A stretch of 64,000 bases of DNA from contig CAZJPN010000036.1 of NCBI GenBank assembly GCA_964547905.1, positions 4,111-68,110 on the forward strand, written 5' to 3'. Below the pieces are notes generated by a model that saw nothing but the letters and a program-made list of their open reading frames with translations, was not told where the DNA came from and ran no database searches. The position numbers were made by a program, and so were the translations under genes. Origin of the DNA: an uncultured Pseudomonadota bacterium. Lineage in GTDB: Bacteria; JAMCPX01. Positions 1-8,123 of the stretch are shown in pieces (the stretch's first letter is position 1; each line of letters begins with the position of its first letter).

Positions 1-293
1 TAGTCCAGTATCTTGTTATAAACCCAGAAATGTTTCCACATGCCAAACAAAACGAGTTTGTAAAATCATTCAAAAAAATGCTTACACGAGAAATAAAAGA
101 TGTGTTTATCGAGCTTGGTATTGACCCCGCCCAACCGATCCGTGAGCAAATGCCAAATCCTCTTCCGGACCGCAAGGCCCTTGATGACATTGTTTTTGAT
201 GTGCTCGGCTTGACGCAGGATGAACGGAACGAGGTGTACTGGGCTGTCTGCGAGTTGGTCCAAAACCGCCTTGCTAAAGCAAAGAGTGTATGA
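1..293 (+). CDS. C-terminal fragment of a DNA methyltransferase / type IIG-like restriction-modification enzyme (partial; continues left of the window)
   Basis: The reading frame is open to base 3 (VQYLVINPE precedes the first Met). The tail ALDDIVFDVLGLTQDERNEVYWAVCELVQNRLAKAK resembles the conserved C-terminal helices of N6-adenine MTase / type IIG enzymes. This is recognition from memory only. Confidence 0.35.
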   Translation, partial: VQYLVINPEMFPHAKQNEFVKSFKKMLTREIKDVFIELGIDPAQPIREQMPNPLPDRKALDDIVFDVLGLTQDERNEVYWAVCELVQNRLAKAKSV

Positions 294-354
294 TAGCTAA
301 TTAACAAATTCAAAAGATGGTTTTGGCTAATCATTTTATGAAAAAGATAAGGAA

Positions 355-384
355 TTGCCTTTCACATAATTGACAAATTATAAT
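355..384 (+). promoter_or_regulatory. Candidate sigma-70 promoter for the Panacea/SNF2 operon
   Basis: TTGCCT (355-360), 18-nt spacer, TATAAT (379-384). An AAGGGAGG SD at 405-412 precedes the ATG at 419. Confidence 0.35.
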
Positions 385-418
385 AAATGAAGGATAAGAT
401 TTAGAAGGGAGGACGGGA

Positions 419-970
419 ATGAGGTTTTGTTTTAATGAGCTCAAATCGGCTCAGGCTGCATCGTTACTTATATCACTTCATGGCGGGGAATTAAATTATA
501 TGGTTCTTATAAAACTCCTGTATCTTGCCGATCGTCAGACCCTTCTGGAGCATGGATATACAATAACGGGTGACAGCTTTGTCTCCATGCCAAGAGGGCC
601 CGTATTGAGCAGAATTTATGACCTTATTACCGTGGGCAGGTACAAAACAATTACCCCGTGGTTTCGCTATATTTCCGAGCCGAAGAATTATAAAGTCAGG
701 CATGCGGAGCATGCCCCGTCAAGGAGAGACGAATTGTCGAAGTATGAGACGAGGGTGCTGCAGGAAATATACAAGAAATATGAGGCAATGGATAAATGGG
801 ATCTCGTCGACCTCATGCATACACTGCCGGAGTGGGAAGACCCTAAGGGTTCATCGCTGCCGATAGATCCTCAAAACATCCTCCGTCTTGAGGGTATAGC
901 TCCCGAAAAGATTGAACAGTTCATCAGCCATGCCGAAGAAGTGTGTTTTTTAGATAACGACCCGGTTTAA
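419..970 (+). CDS. DUF4065 / Panacea-domain protein (GepA/SocA family, PanA-type antitoxin candidate)
   Basis: KLLYLADRQTLLEHGYTITGDSFVSMPRGPVLSRIYDLI and WDLVDLMHTLPEWEDP match the DUF4065 (COG3600) signature. A strong SD sits 6 nt upstream. Confidence 0.8.
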   Translation: MRFCFNELKSAQAASLLISLHGGELNYMVLIKLLYLADRQTLLEHGYTITGDSFVSMPRGPVLSRIYDLITVGRYKTITPWFRYISEPKNYKVRHAEHAPSRRDELSKYETRVLQEIYKKYEAMDKWDLVDLMHTLPEWEDPKGSSLPIDPQNILRLEGIAPEKIEQFISHAEEVCFLDNDPV

Positions 971-971
971 C

Positions 972-1352
972 ATGAAAACCGGAGATACCTTTGTTCTCAG
1001 GCTTCCGAACAAAATACCTCATCTCTGGATCATAATCTCCGACCACACACCCAACAATGAAGTTGTTATTGTAAATGTAACAACAGCCGATCTATCATCG
1101 GATAGTTCCTGCGTCATTACGCTTGGCGAGCATCCATTTATCAAACATGCGTCTGTGGTAGCTTATTATTATGCAAGGCTCATAGCTCTTGAAAAAATAA
1201 CGGAATGGAAAAACAAGCACTATTACGAGTCGTGGCCGCCGGTCAAGCCTCCGCTATTAAGGAAAATTCAGCAAGGGGCAATTGATTCCGACTTTACTCC
1301 ACAAAAGATTCAGGAGATTATAAGAAGACAAATGGAAAAATATGATAAATAA
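972..1352 (+). CDS. Hypothetical 126-aa protein, candidate toxin partner of the Panacea protein (possible MazF/PemK-like SH3 barrel)
   Basis: The ATG lies 1 nt after the upstream stop (TAA C ATG). The N-terminal pattern GDTFVLRLPNKIPHLWIIISDHTPNNEVVIVNVTT resembles the MazF/PemK pattern GD..wv.f.P.....RP.vvlS....vivvP.TT. The fold assignment is inference. Confidence 0.6.
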   Translation: MKTGDTFVLRLPNKIPHLWIIISDHTPNNEVVIVNVTTADLSSDSSCVITLGEHPFIKHASVVAYYYARLIALEKITEWKNKHYYESWPPVKPPLLRKIQQGAIDSDFTPQKIQEIIRRQMEKYDK

Positions 1353-1367
1353 TTATGCCATAATATC

Positions 1368-4300
1368 ATGATCCCCCAAAAAATAATAGATAATAGCGGT
1401 ATAAAACTGGCCGCATTCATTAACAGCGTCCTGCAAGAGATACCCAATACCAGCTTCGACATAGCAACCGCCTTCTTCAATATTCAAGCTTATGCATTTA
1501 TAAAAAATAATGTGCAGGGGGTTAAGCATTTTCGTCTGTTGCTCGGCAAGGCACCGGAAATTAGAAATGATACTACCCTTGGCGATGTTCTTCTTGAGAT
1601 ACTACAGAAGGAGATGGAAGGGTTCGATCTATCAAAGGAGAATAACAGCCTTGTAAAGGAGTTTATAGGCTTTCTCAGGAAAGAGAATGTTGAAGTAAAG
1701 CTTTACGATAAAGAGTTTCTTCACGGGAAAGCATACATATTTGACCAGCTTGTGATAGTGGGCTCATCAAACTTTACACCTGCCGGACTTACACACAATA
1801 CAGAGCTAAATTCCGTCTCGCTTGAAGCGGAAGCCCGGTATGTAAGGACAAACTGGTTTGATAAGTTCTGGAATGAAGCTTTTGATTTCAAGCCCGAGCT
1901 TATCAAGCTCCTTGAGGCTTCAAGGTTTGGGAATAAAGAATACACGCCTTTTGAGGTTTATATAAAATCACTGTATGAATTACAAAAAGAAGACATCAAA
2001 GCTGCCGATAGCAAAGCAGAAGAATTCCGTCCGTCTTCAAAGGTCAACCTCGCAGAATTTCAGGAAGATGCAGTCAGGAGGATATTCAGCCGTCTTAGGA
2101 AGTACAAATCTTGCATGGTTGCGGACTCTGTAGGTTTGGGCAAAACGTGGATCGCAAAAAGAGTTATTGAAGAGTTCGGTTTTTATAAGAGAAGGAGATT
2201 CCTTATCGTCTGCCCGGCTCAGTTAAAGCAAATGTGGAGGAATGAAGTCAAAGACCTCATACTCGCAGATAGCATCCTGTCTCAGGAAGAACTTGCATCT
2301 ACAGAATATCTGAAAAAGGCTGAAAAAGCTGTTGGCGGTAACCTTGAAGAAATCTCTTTGATAGTAGTTGATGAGAGTCATAACTTTAGAAATCCGCTCT
2401 CAAATAGATGGGAAAACTTCTTTACTCTTATGGCTGATCATATAGCAACAGTGAAAAGGAGGCCATACATCGTTTTCCTTACTGCAACTCCAATAAATAA
2501 TACCATCTGGGACCTCTACTGGCAGGTGATGCTTTTGACCCTCATGGATCATAAATCGTTTCTGAAAGAGGGCATTTCCGATCTCTTCAAGTTCTTCAAG
2601 AATATCGATAAGCAAGGCGATCCATCGCTTCTGAACGATCTCATGAACGAAATATCCATACGGAGAACCAGAGATTACATAAAACAGAACTACCCTGATG
2701 CAGAAATTAATAACCAGAAGATTATTTTTCCCGAAAGAGTCCTTGAGAACATAGATTACAAGCTGAATAAAACCTATAAGGGGCTGTACGGCGAAATCTC
2801 CCGAATAATAAGTGAAAAATTGACCATGGCTTACTACAGAGTTCTTGAATACAAAAAAACTGAGAAACTTTCGTCTGCTGAGGAGATGGCACTGGGAAGG
2901 ATGATAGCGTTGGATGGCATTTTTAGGACAATCCTTTTAAAGAGGCTCGAAAGCAGCGTAGAGGCATTTAGGAAAAGCATTGCAACCCATGTCAGATTTC
3001 TGCAAAAACTGAAGGATTATATGAAAAAAGATAAGCTTCTTACCAAACAAACTTTCTACAAGTATATATCGAATCTGAACGAAGAAACCGAGGAAGAGTT
3101 TGCGGAAGAACTGGAGGATATCAATCTTGATGACTATAGAGAAGAAGAGCTGATCGGGGATATTGATAAAGATATAGAATTGTTTGTCGAGATGGGCAAA
3201 AAGGTTGATACGATAGACGAAGATGCTGATTCAAAGCTGAAAAGATTGAAGAAATATCTTCTCGATCTCAGCAAGAATGGGCAGATTGTTGTTTTTACGT
3301 ACTATGCTGACACCTTGGACTATATTTTTCATAATATCAGTAAAGATCCTTCATTCTCAAAAATAAAAATTGAAAAGATATCCGGCAGGATAACTTCCAG
3401 TACAAGACGTGCAGAGATTGTAGATAGCTTTATGAACGGCAAGACCGGTATACTTATGAGTACCGATGTCCTGTCGGAAGGTATGAACCTGCAAAAGGCG
3501 AAGTATCTTATCAATTACGATCTGCACTGGAACCCAACGAGAATGATCCAGCGGGCCGGCAGAATCGACAGGATAGGTTCCTCATTTGAAAAAATATTTG
3601 TTTATAACTTTTTTCCCGAAGAAGAACTCGAAGATCTTTTACGCCTCGTAGAGATCCTTGAAAACAAAATAAGAAACATTGATAGTTCCATCGGACTTGA
3701 TGCCACTGTTTTAGGAGAGGCGGTCAACCCCAAGGTCTTCGGGATATTAAGGAAGATAAAGGAAAAAGATGAGACGGTATTTGAGGAATTGGAAAAAGAA
3801 GTCTTCGGTGGAGGAGAGAAATTCTATCAGCCACTGATAGATTATCTCAAAGCAAAGACGTCTGCAGAATTGGATGCCATCCCTCTCGGGATACACAGCG
3901 GACTTAAGAAAGGTTTTAAAGGAATATTCTTTTATTACAAATATGGCGATGATTTTCATTTCTGGTATCTTTATGACCTTGTTACCGGGAAGATGCTCAA
4001 GAATAAAACAAAGATATTGGATTACATTGTTTGCCCTCCTGACGAAAAAAGGGTTATCCCTGCTTTTTTTGAAAAGGTATATGAGATTAATACGGAAATA
4101 ATGAAAGATATCGAAGAAACTTATAAGGAAGTGGAACAACAGGGGAACGTAGATCCGAAGATTGTCGCACTAACCGGAGATAAGAATAAGAAATTTATTT
4201 ATGCAATCATTCGAGAGATAGATTTGCGCATGAATGATTATTTGCTCGATTTACCGGAAGGTGAGGAAATCGAAAAAACGTGGGAAGCGACACGAGAGAA

Positions 4301-4505
4301 GTTACTATCTGTCAGCCTTACAAAAAAAAGACTCCAGAGTCTGAGAGCGATATGGAGAAGCTATATGAGGGAGCATAAAGACTGGAAGAAGCTCCTCAAT
4401 GATATTTCAGAATTCCTTGAAGGAAAACTGTCAATGGAAAAGGAAAAAATTCAGGTCTATAATCCAAAACTGCTTAAATTGGTTGCGATCGATTTCGTAT
4501 CATAA
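1368..4505 (+). CDS. PLD-family (single HKD) nuclease domain fused to an SNF2-family helicase, with an uncharacterised C-terminal region of about 300 aa
   Basis: HKD motif HGKAYIFDQLVIVGSSNFTPAGLTHNTELN (His codon 1722-1724). SNF2 motifs ADSVGLGKTW (I), VVDESHNFRN (II), LTATPINN (III) and QRAGRIDRIG (VI). Confidence 0.85.
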   Translation: MIPQKIIDNSGIKLAAFINSVLQEIPNTSFDIATAFFNIQAYAFIKNNVQGVKHFRLLLGKAPEIRNDTTLGDVLLEILQKEMEGFDLSKENNSLVKEFIGFLRKENVEVKLYDKEFLHGKAYIFDQLVIVGSSNFTPAGLTHNTELNSVSLEAEARYVRTNWFDKFWNEAFDFKPELIKLLEASRFGNKEYTPFEVYIKSLYELQKEDIKAADSKAEEFRPSSKVNLAEFQEDAVRRIFSRLRKYKSCMVADSVGLGKTWIAKRVIEEFGFYKRRRFLIVCPAQLKQMWRNEVKDLILADSILSQEELASTEYLKKAEKAVGGNLEEISLIVVDESHNFRNPLSNRWENFFTLMADHIATVKRRPYIVFLTATPINNTIWDLYWQVMLLTLMDHKSFLKEGISDLFKFFKNIDKQGDPSLLNDLMNEISIRRTRDYIKQNYPDAEINNQKIIFPERVLENIDYKLNKTYKGLYGEISRIISEKLTMAYYRVLEYKKTEKLSSAEEMALGRMIALDGIFRTILLKRLESSVEAFRKSIATHVRFLQKLKDYMKKDKLLTKQTFYKYISNLNEETEEEFAEELEDINLDDYREEELIGDIDKDIELFVEMGKKVDTIDEDADSKLKRLKKYLLDLSKNGQIVVFTYYADTLDYIFHNISKDPSFSKIKIEKISGRITSSTRRAEIVDSFMNGKTGILMSTDVLSEGMNLQKAKYLINYDLHWNPTRMIQRAGRIDRIGSSFEKIFVYNFFPEEELEDLLRLVEILENKIRNIDSSIGLDATVLGEAVNPKVFGILRKIKEKDETVFEELEKEVFGGGEKFYQPLIDYLKAKTSAELDAIPLGIHSGLKKGFKGIFFYYKYGDDFHFWYLYDLVTGKMLKNKTKILDYIVCPPDEKRVIPAFFEKVYEINTEIMKDIEETYKEVEQQGNVDPKIVALTGDKNKKFIYAIIREIDLRMNDYLLDLPEGEEIEKTWEATREKLLSVSLTKKRLQSLRAIWRSYMREHKDWKKLLNDISEFLEGKLSMEKEKIQVYNPKLLKLVAIDFVS

Positions 4506-4601
4506 CCTGCTCTATTTACTTAAAATTTATTTGATCTATCCGTTCCCCCGTTCTTTAAATGCATTGCCTGTTGTACAGGATTTGTTGTATAAAATAAGCA
4601 T

Positions 4602-5360
4602 ATGAGTTCATTTAAAGATATTGCATGGGATATTTTAAAGGAAGCCGGTAAGCCGCTGCATAGCAAAGAGATTACGAAGATTGCATTAAATAAAGGCTGG
4701 CTTAAAACAGCAGGGAAAACACCTGAAGCTACAATGAATGCTCAGCTTATTGTTGATATAAACGCAAAAAAGGATAAATCACGGTTCATAAAGGCTGGAC
4801 CTTCTGTTTTTGGACTAAATAATAATTTTATCGTACCAGAAAAAAAAGAGATAATAAAAGAAGAAAAGCTTTATAAAATCTCCAAGGATGTCTCCACAAA
4901 ACAAAAAGGTGATATTGCAGAAGCAAGGATAGCGGAGCTTATCACCCTTTATGGTGATACTACCTTATCCTGTTACAAACCGCTGTCTGATGATGAAGGG
5001 ATCGATCTGATTGTAAAGGAAAAGGGCAGTTTAAAAACAATGTACATCCAGATCAAGAGCCGTTTCGGTGATAATCCGGATGAAATATTTACTGCAACTA
5101 CGAAAGCTGCATCCATTGCTGACAATTATTCAATGGCTGCGGTTTTCTGTTTCTTTGATACAGAAGAGGGAGACCTGTGGGATTATCTCTGGTTTGTGCC
5201 TGCTCCAGATCTAATAAGATATGCAAATAAGCTTACTGGCGGAAAGTTTCTTGGATTTGTAGCGGGGAGGAAAAAAAAAGAATCGAATAAATGGGATGAT
5301 TACTTGATTGATAAACGTGGGTTAGCAAATCGCATCATTACCCAGATGAAAAGGATATAA
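4602..5360 (+). CDS. HARE-HTH domain protein fused to a PD-(D/E)xK-like restriction endonuclease domain
   Basis: The N-terminus FKDIAWDILKEAGKPLHSKEITKIAL...TPEATMNAQL...RFIKAGPSVFGL is typical of HARE-HTH. The C-terminus GDIAEARIAELITLYG...DDEGIDLIVKEKG...YIQIKSR fits a D...(D/E)xK-type nuclease core. Confidence 0.7.
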   Translation: MSSFKDIAWDILKEAGKPLHSKEITKIALNKGWLKTAGKTPEATMNAQLIVDINAKKDKSRFIKAGPSVFGLNNNFIVPEKKEIIKEEKLYKISKDVSTKQKGDIAEARIAELITLYGDTTLSCYKPLSDDEGIDLIVKEKGSLKTMYIQIKSRFGDNPDEIFTATTKAASIADNYSMAAVFCFFDTEEGDLWDYLWFVPAPDLIRYANKLTGGKFLGFVAGRKKKESNKWDDYLIDKRGLANRIITQMKRI

Positions 5361-6060
5361 AAGAGCATCGGGCACAGCCTTTGAAATGTGAAATAAGGCA
5401 AGTGGTTGACCCGCGTTAGTCAGGTCTAAAGCATAGTTTTCATTGCCCTCCATTTCTTAATAAAGGACGACATAAGAGGATTTACACAGCCCTGTTTCCC
5501 CTTTTGATAGAGGGGCCAAAGACAATACCACGTCCCGCCGCAGGCGAGACGGAACGCAGAGAGGGCTATCATGCCAGGTGGTCGTGTATCTCTCTCGCAA
5601 TGCTTAGCGGTATGCCCGTGCGCCGTGTAATCTCATCCGGCATTGTATTTCTGATCTCATCGATATTTGCGAATATCGACAGCAGGAGCCGTTTCCTTTT
5701 GACTGAAACGCCCGCAATGCCGTCAAGCCCGGACGCAAGTCCGGCCTTTGACCGCAGCTTTCTGTGGTACGTGATTGCAAACCTGTGTGCCTCATCACGG
5801 ATGCGTTTTAAAAGCATGAGCGGTTCAGAGCCATGTGCGAGGTCAAGCGGGTCTTTCCTGTTCCGCAGGTATATCCTTTCCTCTTCCCTGTTTACCCTGT
5901 TCGGGCTGGCACCAGGCTTCAGCCCGCGGTCCCTGTTGTAAGGATTGGACAGCGGACTATCTTTATGGATCTTTGCAATGCCTATAACATCCGGCTCATG
6001 AATGTCGAGTTCTTTGAGCACATCGAGTGCTATGCTCAACTGCCCCTTTCCGCCATCAAC
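5361..6060. repeat. Copy A of a head-to-tail duplication (uvrC 3' end plus about 210 nt of downstream non-coding DNA)
   Basis: Aligns with 6061-6741. Bases 5422-5606 versus 6123-6307 differ at only 3 positions. Identity decays, with a 21-nt indel, toward 5880-6000. Confidence 0.9.
5569..6060 (-). pseudogene. Truncated uvrC 3' fragment (about the C-terminal 160 aa, covering the HhH region)
   Basis: Its translation SIALDVLKEL...LMLLKRIRDEAHRFAITYHRKLRSKAGLASGLDGIAGVS.KRKRLLLSIFAN.DEIRN.MP.EITRRTGIP.SIAREIHDHLA parallels the C-terminus of the intact UvrC at 6270-8123. It has no N-terminal GIY-YIG or endonuclease part. Confidence 0.85.
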
Positions 6061-6741
6061 AAAAAGTCATGGGGTCTGCCCTTGAAATGTGAAATAAGGC
6101 AGGTGGCGGGCCCTTGTTAGACAGGTCTAAAGCATAGTTCTCATTGCCCTCCATTTCTTAATAAAGGACGACATAAGAGGATTTACACAGCCCTGTTTCC
6201 CCTCTTGATAGAGGGGCCAAAGACAATACCACGTCCCGCCGCAGGCGGGACGGAACGCAGAGAGGGCTATCATGCCAGGTGGTCGTGTATCTCTCTCGCA
6301 ATGCTTATCGGTATGCCTGTGCGCCGCGTGATCTCTTCCGGCATTGCGTTCCTGATCTCGTCTACATTTGCGAATATCGACAGCAGGAGCCGTTTTCTTT
6401 TCTCAGAAACGCCCGCAATGCCGTCAAGCCCGGACGCAAGCCCGGCCTTTGACCGCAGCTTTCTGTGGTACGTGATTGCAAACCTGTGTGCCTCGTCTCT
6501 GATGCGCTTTAAGAGCATAAGCGCTTCGGAGTTCCGGATGATGTTGATCGGGTCTTTCCTGTTCCGCAGGTATATCCTTTCTTCTTCCGTGTTCACCCTG
6601 CCACGGGAGGTATGGAATGACTGCCCCTCCGCCGTACTGTCCCTGTGGATCTTCGCAAGGCCGATAACGTCCGGCTGCTCAATGCCGAGCTCCTTCAGAA
6701 CATCGAGTGCTATGCTCAACTGCCCCTTTCCGCCGTCAACA
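6061..6741. repeat. Copy B of the duplication (the functional uvrC 3' end and its downstream region)
   Basis: See copy A. The junction is at 6060/6061 (ccatcaacaa|aaagtcatgggg). Confidence 0.9.
6232..6252 (-). terminator. Hairpin 18 nt downstream of the uvrC stop
   Basis: Perfect 9-bp stem cgtcccgcc-gca-ggcgggacg. A second hairpin cccctc-ttgata-gagggg lies at 6199-6216. The U-tract is weak, so intrinsic terminator function is uncertain. Confidence 0.45.
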
Positions 6742-8123
6742 ATAATGAGCGACGGTATGTCTGCCTTATCCCTGAACCTCCTGCTCAGCACCTCGTGCAT
6801 CATGGCATAGTCATCCGGCCTGCTGACCTCCCTGAGCCGGTAATGCCTATATTTTGCCTTTACTGGAACGCCGTTCTCAAACCGCACCATGGAAGACACG
6901 CTGTTCGTACCGAGGATATTCGAGTTGTCGAAACACTCTATGGTTGCGGGTGCATGCCTGAGGTGCAGTATGTCCCGGAGCCCTTCAATCGCGGACAGGG
7001 CTGTTGCTTGTTTTTGCAGTGACAGGTGAAGATATTCTGCTGCGTTTTTTTCAGACAACCTGATGAGTTCACGTTTTTTCCCTGCCCTCGGTATTTCAAT
7101 ACGCACTGCCCTGCCCTTCACGTCCGACAGGTGTGACTGAAGGATGCCCATATCCGTCAAGGGGAAGGGCAGGCAAATGATGTCCGGAATAAAGTGGCCG
7201 TTTTCGTAATACTGGCTGACAGCCGAACCCAGGAGTTCTTCCGTATCGAGCGGGGTATCTTTGAACAGGTAGTTGAATGAATTCAGCAGTTGTCCGTTGC
7301 GTATAAAGAGACCGTTGACCGCAACAGTCTGCCCTTCGGACGCCGTGGTAAAAATATCCATATCAACGGCGCTTGAGGTCTCTACCTTCTGCTTTTCAAC
7401 GGTTTTCTCTATGTTCAGGATAAGGTCACGCATCTGGGCTGCCTTTTCATAATGCTCCAGCCCGGACTCCGTTTTCATGTGTGCTTTCAAGGCTTTGATG
7501 ACTGCGCCGGTTTTTCCCTCGAGGAAGAGCCGGGCCTGCTGTACATGTTCCCGGTAGTCCTCCTGCGTTATGTGGCCCGCACACGGAGCGGAACACCGCT
7601 TGATCTGATACTTCATGCACGGCCTTATCCTGTTCCTTAGCTCGGCGTCCGTACACGTCCTGAGCTGGAACAGGTCTGTGATCAGCTTGACTGTTTCCCT
7701 GGCTGCGAATGCCGAGGAGTAGGGCCCGAAGATCAGGGAGCCGTCCCGCGCAGGCCTTCTCACGACCTGGATGCCGGGGAATTTGTGGTCCGTGGATATG
7801 CGTATGTTAACATAGCTCTTGTCGTCCTTTAAACGGATATTGTACCTCGGCTTGTGCTTCTTGATAAGGTTGTTCTCAAGCAGGAGTGCCTCTTTCTCGG
7901 TGTCCGTCAGCATGAATTCTATGCGGTTTATTCTGGGTTTTAGGAAATTTATAAAAGGTCTGGCATCCGGCGATGCCGTAAAATAAGCCCTTACCCGGCT
8001 GTTCAAATCTACGGCCTTGCCTATGTAGAGCACTGTGTCTTTTGTGTCCTTAAATATATAAACACCGGGTTGTTTCGGCACAACCCCGAGCTTTTCATGG
8101 ATATGTTCATCTACCTCTATCAT
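6270..8123 (-). CDS. uvrC: Excinuclease ABC subunit C
   Basis: 617 aa. GIY-YIG N-terminus (PGVYIFKDTKDTVLYIGKAVDLNSRVRAYF), UVR domain, and a C-terminal RNase H-like endonuclease plus (HhH)2. Confidence 0.95.
   Translation of the reverse strand: MIEVDEHIHEKLGVVPKQPGVYIFKDTKDTVLYIGKAVDLNSRVRAYFTASPDARPFINFLKPRINRIEFMLTDTEKEALLLENNLIKKHKPRYNIRLKDDKSYVNIRISTDHKFPGIQVVRRPARDGSLIFGPYSSAFAARETVKLITDLFQLRTCTDAELRNRIRPCMKYQIKRCSAPCAGHITQEDYREHVQQARLFLEGKTGAVIKALKAHMKTESGLEHYEKAAQMRDLILNIEKTVEKQKVETSSAVDMDIFTTASEGQTVAVNGLFIRNGQLLNSFNYLFKDTPLDTEELLGSAVSQYYENGHFIPDIICLPFPLTDMGILQSHLSDVKGRAVRIEIPRAGKKRELIRLSEKNAAEYLHLSLQKQATALSAIEGLRDILHLRHAPATIECFDNSNILGTNSVSSMVRFENGVPVKAKYRHYRLREVSRPDDYAMMHEVLSRRFRDKADIPSLIIVDGGKGQLSIALDVLKELGIEQPDVIGLAKIHRDSTAEGQSFHTSRGRVNTEEERIYLRNRKDPINIIRNSEALMLLKRIRDEAHRFAITYHRKLRSKAGLASGLDGIAGVSEKRKRLLLSIFANVDEIRNAMPEEITRRTGIPISIAREIHDHLA

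Follow-up and report, generated by a model that had tools for sequence, protein, structure and literature searches.

In Type ISP (LlaGI/LlaBIII) and Type III restriction-modification (R-M) systems, a nuclease and an ATP motor work with an adenine methyltransferase (MTase) and its target-recognition domain (TRD) at an asymmetric site, and the Res-like subunit relies on the Mod-like one for recognition. R-M-like logic has also been described for MANTIS, the Type-2 DUF499-centered BREX-related (BR) system also called Gao_RL, whose proteins MtsA-D include an N6-adenine MTase and a single-HKD PLD nuclease fused to an SF2/Swi2-Snf2 motor (PMC12839542; bioRxiv 10.64898/2026.09.23.753747). MtsD, the PLD+SF2 protein, is a dimer with one active site that acts after MTase-dependent recognition of asymmetric hemimethylated sites (bioRxiv 10.64898/2026.09.23.753747). 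MtsA and MtsB define the system and are both needed for methylation and restriction (PMC12839542; bioRxiv 10.64898/2026.09.23.753747); MtsB, a small DUF3780 protein, is encoded at 98% of Type-2 BR loci. DISARM class I, ARMADA and BREX type 3 share a pair made up of a Snf2 helicase and a PglX-like methylase (PMC12458937). Here we analyzed a 64,000-nucleotide (nt) stretch of DNA (the window) from an uncultured Pseudomonadota bacterium of the GTDB lineage JAMCPX01 (assembly GCA_964547905.1, contig CAZJPN010000036.1, positions 4,111 to 68,110), at whose left end lies a locus encoding a PLD-Swi2/Snf2 protein of 1045 amino acids (aa). The true conserved partner of this protein is the MTase whose gene ends just upstream, and the two genes form a unit. 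It is probable, in our judgment, that the locus comprises three independent layers: this two-gene, R-M-like core, a PanA-PanT cassette embedded within it, and a gene for a HARE-HTH nuclease at its 3´ end.

An open reading frame (ORF) scan gave five ORFs on the + strand, with the boundaries and spacers (1, 15 and 96 nt) that an earlier note on this DNA had listed: the MTase tail (1-293, frame 3-293), followed by ORFs at 419-970 (183 aa), 972-1352 (126 aa), 1368-4505 (1045 aa) and 4602-5360 (252 aa). The operon start that the note placed at 355 falls instead in a promoter-like site (355-384) with no start codon, and the first possible start is at 419. We retrieved 31 PLD-Swi2/Snf2 loci and judged MTase pairing where the upstream DNA sufficed. 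The MTase gene lies upstream of, and on the same strand as, the PLD-Swi2/Snf2 gene at every related locus with enough upstream DNA (15 distinct loci), and where the L007 and L022 contigs end, as in the window, a fragment of its tail is present. Among these loci, Nitrospirota, Desulfobacteraceae, Brocadia/Loosdrechtia, Thermoplasmata and Argoarchaeum are represented. At a locus with a distant helicase homologue (L029, 34% identity), no MTase of the core family was found within 10 kilobases (kb) upstream. The 12 loci with 1.9-5.8 kb of DNA 5´ of the MTase have no gene in common there and none of DUF499 size, and related loci likewise share no gene 3´ of the helicase. We found the other three window proteins (Panacea, 126-aa and HARE nuclease) to have homologues at 0 of the 31 loci. 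The earlier note correctly described defense-type DNA attached to an R-M-type MTase, and it correctly supposed that the locus may extend left of the window, where most of the ~1,230-aa MTase gene lies. It was right about the R-M type of this enzyme and wrong to treat it as a mere neighbor, since the MTase is the sole conserved partner of the PLD-Swi2/Snf2 protein.

The PLD-Swi2/Snf2 protein (1368-4505) has an N-terminal single-HKD PLD domain, a Swi2/Snf2 ATPase motor and a C-terminal region of ~250 aa without a recognized fold, with Pfam matches to PLDc_2 (E=1.5e-11), SNF2-rel_dom, ResIII and Helicase_C (E=6e-24). Its motifs are HGKAYIFD at aa 119, GSSN at 132, GLGKT at 256, DESH at 335 (position 2370 of the window) and QRAGR at 728, and the HKD histidine that had been placed at 1722-1724 is H119 of the HxK motif. 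H119 and K121, GSSN, the Walker A motif, the DExH box and motif VI are invariant across PLD-Swi2/Snf2 subfamilies down to 29% identity. The top profile matches in the PDB are CHD1L, the Sso Rad54-like protein, Ino80 and RapA, and the motor is therefore genuinely Swi2/Snf2-like. Pfam recognized no DNA-specificity domain in the protein. Relatives number in the thousands; the best 120 are full-length PLD+SNF2 proteins with 60-92% identity, and the sources named among them are Deltaproteobacteria, Nitrospirae/Thermodesulfovibrionales, Candidatus Loosdrechtia, Atribacteria and Helarchaeota.

The last 96 codons of the MTase gene lie in the window. They encode a tail that is 78% identical to aa 1138-1233 of the 1233-aa Eco57I/MmeI-type MTase of L001 and 56-88% identical to MTase tails at other loci (tblastn); positions 1-294 are homologous to the L001 tail at the DNA level as well (blastn). 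By this homology, the full-length gene would encode a MmeI/Eco57I-type N6-adenine MTase of ~1,230 aa. Full-length relatives have Pfam Eco57I (E=9e-34) and MmeI_Mtase domains at aa 423-800. Their alignment is conserved over aa 1-930 and 1166-1233, and the hypervariable block at ~940-1165 reads as the signature of a diversifying TRD. The relatives thus show an arrangement typical of Type IIG/IIL enzymes, with a variable TRD after an N6-adenine MTase domain of the gamma class. PDB sequence and profile searches returned weak matches to the MTase core (CamA, the adenine MTase 8zek and MmeI), none of which covers the 420-aa N-terminus. At L092, whose helicase belongs to a subfamily with 30% identity, genes of 255 and 200 aa (1-2833) lie between an MTase fragment (aa ~749-965) and a separate ORF for the TRD and tail, and the MTase there appears either to be split by a cassette or to hold a second TRD copy.

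The MTase could instead be a self-sufficient, MmeI-like Type IIG/IIL enzyme, with the PLD-Swi2/Snf2 protein an independent, SauUSI-like (modification-dependent) nuclease-helicase that shares its island. We consider this unlikely. The best PADLOC matches of the MTase are indeed 'REase_MTase_IIG' profiles (184 bits), with the DrmMI profiles (78 bits) below them. The catalytic motif of MmeI resembles D/E-x9-E-x-K, and a D/E-x9-E75-x-K77 pattern (L001 aa 60-80) is present near the N-terminus of 6 of 10 relatives, with E75 invariant. Single-chain PLD+SF2 restriction enzymes also exist, SauUSI being one (bioRxiv 10.64898/2026.09.23.753747). However, 4 of the 10 relatives, among them the closest, L001, have T or S in place of K77, and the MmeI N-terminal nuclease family is not among the Pfam matches of the MTase relatives; the pattern may mark a decaying nuclease domain, and we tentatively read it as vestigial. 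Moreover, the order and orientation of the pair are fixed across bacteria and archaea while the surroundings and the intervening genes change, and a PLD-Swi2/Snf2 protein acting independently would do so with no recognizable specificity domain.

Between the MTase and helicase genes lies a slot of 620-4,700 base pairs (bp), with co-directional genes that are different at each locus. Its contents include DUF4258/DUF2283, HigB/HTH-M78, UPF0175/PIN, DUF433/DUF5615-PIN and MNT/HepT, as well as Fic-HTH, a 968-aa RelA_SpoT protein, GmrSD_N, an AAA_15/21 ATPase with a partner, DUF3800 with a partner, HSP70-TPR with UvrD, DUF5677 and an IS200-like gene. Several match 'embedded' candidates of PADLOC (PDC-M04A/B, 306 and 131 bits; HEC-06, 230 bits; HEC-01/03-type ATPases), which were themselves discovered as genes embedded within other systems. 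Embedded cassettes are also known from systems of the Hma, BREX, DISARM and Type I R-M kinds, and the Hma/BR systems related to MANTIS resemble the pair in this respect (bioRxiv 10.1101/2024.01.29.577857). Whereas embedded genes are found in ~63% of Hma systems, the slot is empty in 0 of the 15 distinct loci (L001-L030), and even the shortest gap, 620 bp in L015, holds a 201-aa ORF without a Pfam match. Fragments of the MTase C-terminal tail recur within the slot, one ahead of each stacked cassette (L006 5020-5112, 6838-6903 and 7694-7825; L030 6240-6413 and 6864-7007; L011 6898-6966; L026 8351-8482). Their position suggests that a cassette enters by recombination at the 3´ end of the MTase gene and brings a piece of that gene along.

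The earlier note had recognized no named system in this gene combination, and PADLOC, NCBIfam and Pfam likewise assign one to none of the four window proteins. Our literature search found no paper naming a two-gene system of MTase and PLD-Snf2 protein. The best PADLOC match of the PLD-Swi2/Snf2 protein, 'C3a139 HKD+Snf2' (184 bits), carries a label that refers only to a Type III CRISPR-neighborhood cluster; PLD_Helicase gives 87 bits, and BrxHII and HmaA profiles are matched too. The best NCBIfam match of the helicase core is DrmD (201 bits, cut-off 610), ahead of the PLD anti-phage family (151 bits, cut-off 1100).

The pair is similar to MANTIS in its combination of an N6-adenine MTase with a single-HKD PLD fused to a Swi2/Snf2 motor. 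The architecture of the PLD-Swi2/Snf2 protein is that of MtsD, but at 151 bits against a cut-off of 1100 it is a homologue and not an orthologue, and the MTase differs in being Eco57I/MmeI-like and ~1,230 aa long. In further contrast to MANTIS, the pair lacks the DUF499 AAA+ ATPase (MtsA/HmaC), with no large or conserved ATPase in the 12 flanks and no DUF499 among the Pfam matches of L001-L005, and it lacks DUF3780 (MtsB) among the gap and flank proteins scanned, the gap content varying by locus. With the 'DrmD + DrmMI' of DISARM class I and ARMADA, the pair has in common a Swi2/Snf2 helicase and a large gamma-class adenine methylase, and the DrmMI and PglX profiles match the MTase, all far below equivalog cut-offs. 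DISARM also uses PLD chemistry, but through a separate DrmC, whereas PLD is fused to Snf2 in the window protein. That the locus is not DISARM, as the note had argued, is confirmed by the absence of DrmA (YprA helicase) and DrmB (DUF1998) from positions 1-5400 and from the related loci; the order, MTase then helicase, differs as well. DISARM-I, ARMADA and BREX-3 also have YprA/DUF1998 or PglZ/BrxC, which the loci of the pair do not; PglZ and BrxC are absent from the related loci examined, and the PglX NCBIfam profiles score 55-61 bits with the MTase against cut-offs of 400-900. To Type ISP and Type III enzymes the likeness would be one of analogy, a nuclease and ATP motor acting with a gamma-class adenine MTase. 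The nuclease is of PLD rather than Mrr/PD-ExK type, and the motor is Swi2/Snf2 rather than Type ISP or Res-type. There are also two polypeptides where Type ISP has one, and the MTase, unlike the Mod of Type III, is not of the beta class.

These partial matches, and the fact that the window edge falls inside the MTase, could be taken to mean that what we see is the right-hand part of an already described, larger system (MANTIS/Gao_RL/Hma, DISARM class I, ARMADA or BREX type 3), with DUF499 and DUF3780, DrmA/B/C, a YprA helicase or PglZ/BrxC left of the window. We find this quite improbable. The helicase does match DrmD, BrxHII, HmaA and PLD anti-phage profiles, and the MTase weakly matches DrmMI and PglX, but the NCBIfam equivalogs stay far below their cut-offs (201 against 610, 151 against 1100, 61 against 900). 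The 12 loci with DNA 5´ of the MTase share no upstream gene, and Pfam detects no DUF499, DUF3780, DUF1998 or PglZ in L001-L005.

The slot of the window is occupied by the PanA-PanT cassette (362-1356, + strand). PanA (419-970) is a Panacea (DUF4065/SocA-like) antitoxin of 183 aa with a full-length SocA_Panacea domain (Pfam PF13274, E=6.1e-23) and a match to phrog_1281 (80 bits). It is preceded by a promoter-like site (TTGCCT-18-TATAAT, 355-384) and a strong ribosome-binding site (AGGGAGG, ~406-413), and PanT (972-1352) starts 1 nt after it. The 126-aa product of the second gene, which the note had listed as unknown, is a putative toxin with a predicted MazF/CcdB (PemK-like) fold: its AlphaFold2 (AF2) model has a pLDDT of 89.8, and the top 37 Foldseek matches of the model in the PDB are all MazF or CcdB toxins (probability ~1.0, TM 0.5-0.63). 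The pairing of a Panacea antitoxin with a MazF/PemK-like PanT has been validated experimentally, and such PanT proteins are translation inhibitors (PMC8832971). Given the Panacea domain, the predicted fold and this precedent, the window pair is a predicted PanAT module of known kind. It is similar to characterized PanAT pairs in having a Panacea antitoxin just 5´ of a small protein with a predicted MazF fold, a promoter-like site of its own and mobility as a pair, and different in being embedded inside a defense system and in its toxin family, which has no Pfam model. That family has only 9 close relatives and ~3,500 distant clusters (3,477 representative clusters at E<=1e-3 in a profile search, all of ~120-135 aa) and matches the phage family phrog_19071. 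Invariant residues of the 126-aa protein are G4, D5, H17, L18, W19, N35, T37, D44, G52, H54 and S61.

The DNA shows where this cassette begins and ends. Positions 362-1356 are 82% identical to L037 1106-2100 and to L039, with zero homology beyond, and the DNA on either side aligns with L001 instead, 1-294 with the tail of its MTase gene and 1362-1696 with the start of its helicase gene (blastn). The cassette has sharp borders and is separately mobile. In L037-L040, a homologue of the 126-aa protein (78%) follows a 183-aa Panacea gene (86%) and lies ahead of a PLD-SNF2 gene whose product is only 30% identical to that of the window, with an IS256 transposase upstream, housekeeping genes downstream and no HARE gene. 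The presence of the same cassette beside a divergent helicase hints either at repeated capture by a similar slot or at a functional affinity with PLD-SNF2 genes. Distant homologues of the 126-aa protein (38-41% identity) are also preceded by a Panacea gene, with no helicase directly 3´. A Panacea homologue is in fact found 5´ of every 126-aa homologue with readable upstream DNA, as a pair in L037-L040 and L042 and as Panacea-like sequence in L041 and L043.

The last gene of the locus (4602-5360, + strand) encodes a 252-aa putative nuclease with a HARE-HTH domain (Pfam, E=6.8e-22) at its N-terminus and a predicted PD-(D/E)xK-type C-terminus. The domain calls of the earlier note (Panacea, PLD-SNF2 and HARE-HTH) all recur in Pfam, with PDDEXK_5 just below threshold here (25.0 bits, cut-off 26.1). 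E107, D135, Q150 and K152 are invariant in 22 sequences and form an Mrr-like E...D...QxK pattern; a PDB sequence search with the protein gave nothing significant. BREX-related systems have been described as having HARE-HTH-REase fusions among their auxiliary effectors (PMC12839542), and such fusions have been assigned to R-M systems as well (PMC3417536). Like these and Mrr-type proteins, the window protein combines an N-terminal winged-helix-type reader with a C-terminal domain, here a putative PD-(D/E/Q)xK one, beside a methylase system; unlike other such fusions, it is unusually conserved over very distant taxa and host systems, and its gene takes the last position in the operon. Homologues fall into 911 clusters, the best 120 of which are 77-100% identical to the window protein, with Patescibacteria, Pacearchaeota and Humimicrobiaceae among the sources named for these 120. 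A promoter-like site at 4435-4463, in the 3´ end of the helicase gene, and a weak hairpin at 4567-4579, in the 96-nt spacer, are both consensus matches only; the HARE gene may also be transcribed separately.

We surveyed the context of the HARE gene at 82 further loci (L032-L036 and L046-L125), 59 of them with enough upstream DNA. The protein is 76-90% identical across all 82, which come from very distant taxa, and its gene is almost always the final gene of a co-directional operon, with a co-directional upstream gene in 57 of the 59, the two genes being separated by a median of 3 nt. At 49 of the 59 loci, the four upstream genes include R-M genes, which belong to at least five types: HSDR_N_2+N6_Mtase with Methylase_S, Type III Mod and Res, an EcoRI-like methylase with GmrSD_N-HNH, a Dam/D12 methylase, and Type I HsdR. 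The HARE-associated methylase families scanned with Pfam are all of the N6-adenine class. A PLD-SNF2 gene is upstream at 1 of the 59 (L092), where the HARE and helicase genes overlap by 8 nt at the helicase stop, and a Panacea or 126-aa homologue is present at 0 of the 82. The HARE protein is too conserved across such varied systems to be a cognate sequence-specific enzyme, and judging from this distribution it is most likely a mobile, type IV-style or backup nuclease.

That all four genes and the MTase are subunits of one undescribed defense system, as the earlier note proposed for the four, is suggested by their shared direction and tight spacing, by the same Panacea and 126-aa pair ahead of PLD-SNF2 in a second, divergent lineage (L037-L039) and by the HARE overlap in L092, but we now see very little chance of it, since conserved co-localization, which the note itself had named beforehand as the test, does not hold (0 of 31 PLD-SNF2 loci, 1 of 59 HARE loci for PLD-SNF2 and 0 of 82 for Panacea or the 126-aa protein), the divergent lineage has housekeeping genes and no HARE gene after its helicase, and the cassette is a textbook toxin-antitoxin (TA) pair with sharp DNA borders; these co-occurrence data already largely refute it.

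The first of two tandem, directly repeated units (5377-6077, - strand) bounds the locus on its right; the second follows at 6078-6745, and the two are 84% identical over 664 nt and 93% identical in their 124-nt intergenic part (blastn). What is repeated is the final ~476 nt of uvrC together with its terminator hairpin and the 124-nt intergenic stretch. The second unit is the 3´ end of an intact uvrC (6270-8123), the hairpins (5559-5528 and 6260-6229) have identical stems, and the first unit contains a 156-aa uvrC-fragment ORF with a UvrC_RNaseH_dom (Pfam). The note's att-like scar at uvrC is this tandem repeat: both units lie in tandem on one side of the locus, which rules them out as att sites bracketing it. 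A compositional island at 1-5400 is likewise ruled out, the GC content there (~0.40) being the same as in the remaining 64-kb window. The uvrC segment alone (5500-8100) stands apart, with a GC content of 0.52 against ~0.40 otherwise, and from this composition it is uvrC, not the defense locus, that looks foreign or recombined.

The genes present, their motifs and synteny, the borders of the cassette and the predicted folds lead us to infer the following biochemical activities and interplay for the three layers. The MTase, with its variable TRD, would mark host DNA, probably by hemimethylating an asymmetric site. The PLD-Swi2/Snf2 protein would be the restriction effector, recruited at unmodified sites that the MTase recognizes. 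Because each chain has only one HKD motif, we expect it to dimerize; as in BfiI and MtsD, the lone HKDs of the two chains would build one shared PLD active site, and the dimer could then use ATP to translocate or remodel DNA before cutting it. PanA-PanT, in the hypervariable slot, would serve as an addiction or abortive-infection backup module rather than as a subunit. The HARE protein would most likely serve as a backup nuclease of Mrr-like (type IV-style) kind, cutting modified DNA irrespective of sequence when the primary system misses it; its gene is highly conserved, moves horizontally and is found joined to many types of adenine-methylase R-M operon. As far as the sequences tell, the core is a minimal two-gene architecture, one for which our literature search found no name, while the cassette and the HARE gene belong to known kinds.

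Several points weigh against this three-layer reading. At least one embedded gene is present at every locus examined, and the pair may require a third, interchangeable component. The PanAT cassette is found at two divergent PLD-SNF2 genes, which could reflect functional coupling rather than hitchhiking. A two-gene form without MtsA and MtsB may work in another way than MANTIS or need a host factor, and the D/E-x9-E-x-K pattern at the MTase N-terminus may give this enzyme nuclease activity of its own. The 96 MTase codons in the window do not establish the integrity of the MTase in the host genome. For the HARE protein, a nuclease fold is indicated only by the sub-threshold Pfam match and motifs, and its AF2 model, built from a shallow alignment (78-90% identity), is confident for residues 1-80 only, with pLDDT <50 over 81-252. 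Finally, the activity of the core family, its target and its self/non-self logic are what we infer, as set out above, from comparison with related systems.

A bolder version of the three-layer reading would make the pair an autonomous R-M class, a 'minimal MANTIS' whose ATP-dependent discrimination of self from non-self needs no AAA+ loader and which has passed between bacteria and archaea, its copies 60-90% identical, the slot an obligatory, recombination-driven docking site for interchangeable abortive-infection modules, and the HARE protein a universal add-on that senses failed or evaded adenine-methylation restriction. Taken jointly, these proposals are tentative, and we doubt that all of them will hold.

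What makes this locus of interest is its minimal two-gene architecture, its always-filled slot and its promiscuous HARE nuclease. It also carries a lesson for annotation, in that the tight spacing of an operon can mislead: three independently mobile units here resemble one system. The always-occupied slot offers a 'guilt-by-embedding' source of new defense and TA cassettes in poorly studied anaerobes and archaea, and the HARE nuclease, nearly invariant on at least five kinds of adenine-methylase operon, is a candidate general backup effector. Should the two core genes suffice for activity, the pair would be the simplest member of the BREX/DISARM/MANTIS-related defenses that combine a methylase with Snf2, and would reveal which parts of the multi-protein systems are dispensable for self/non-self discrimination.

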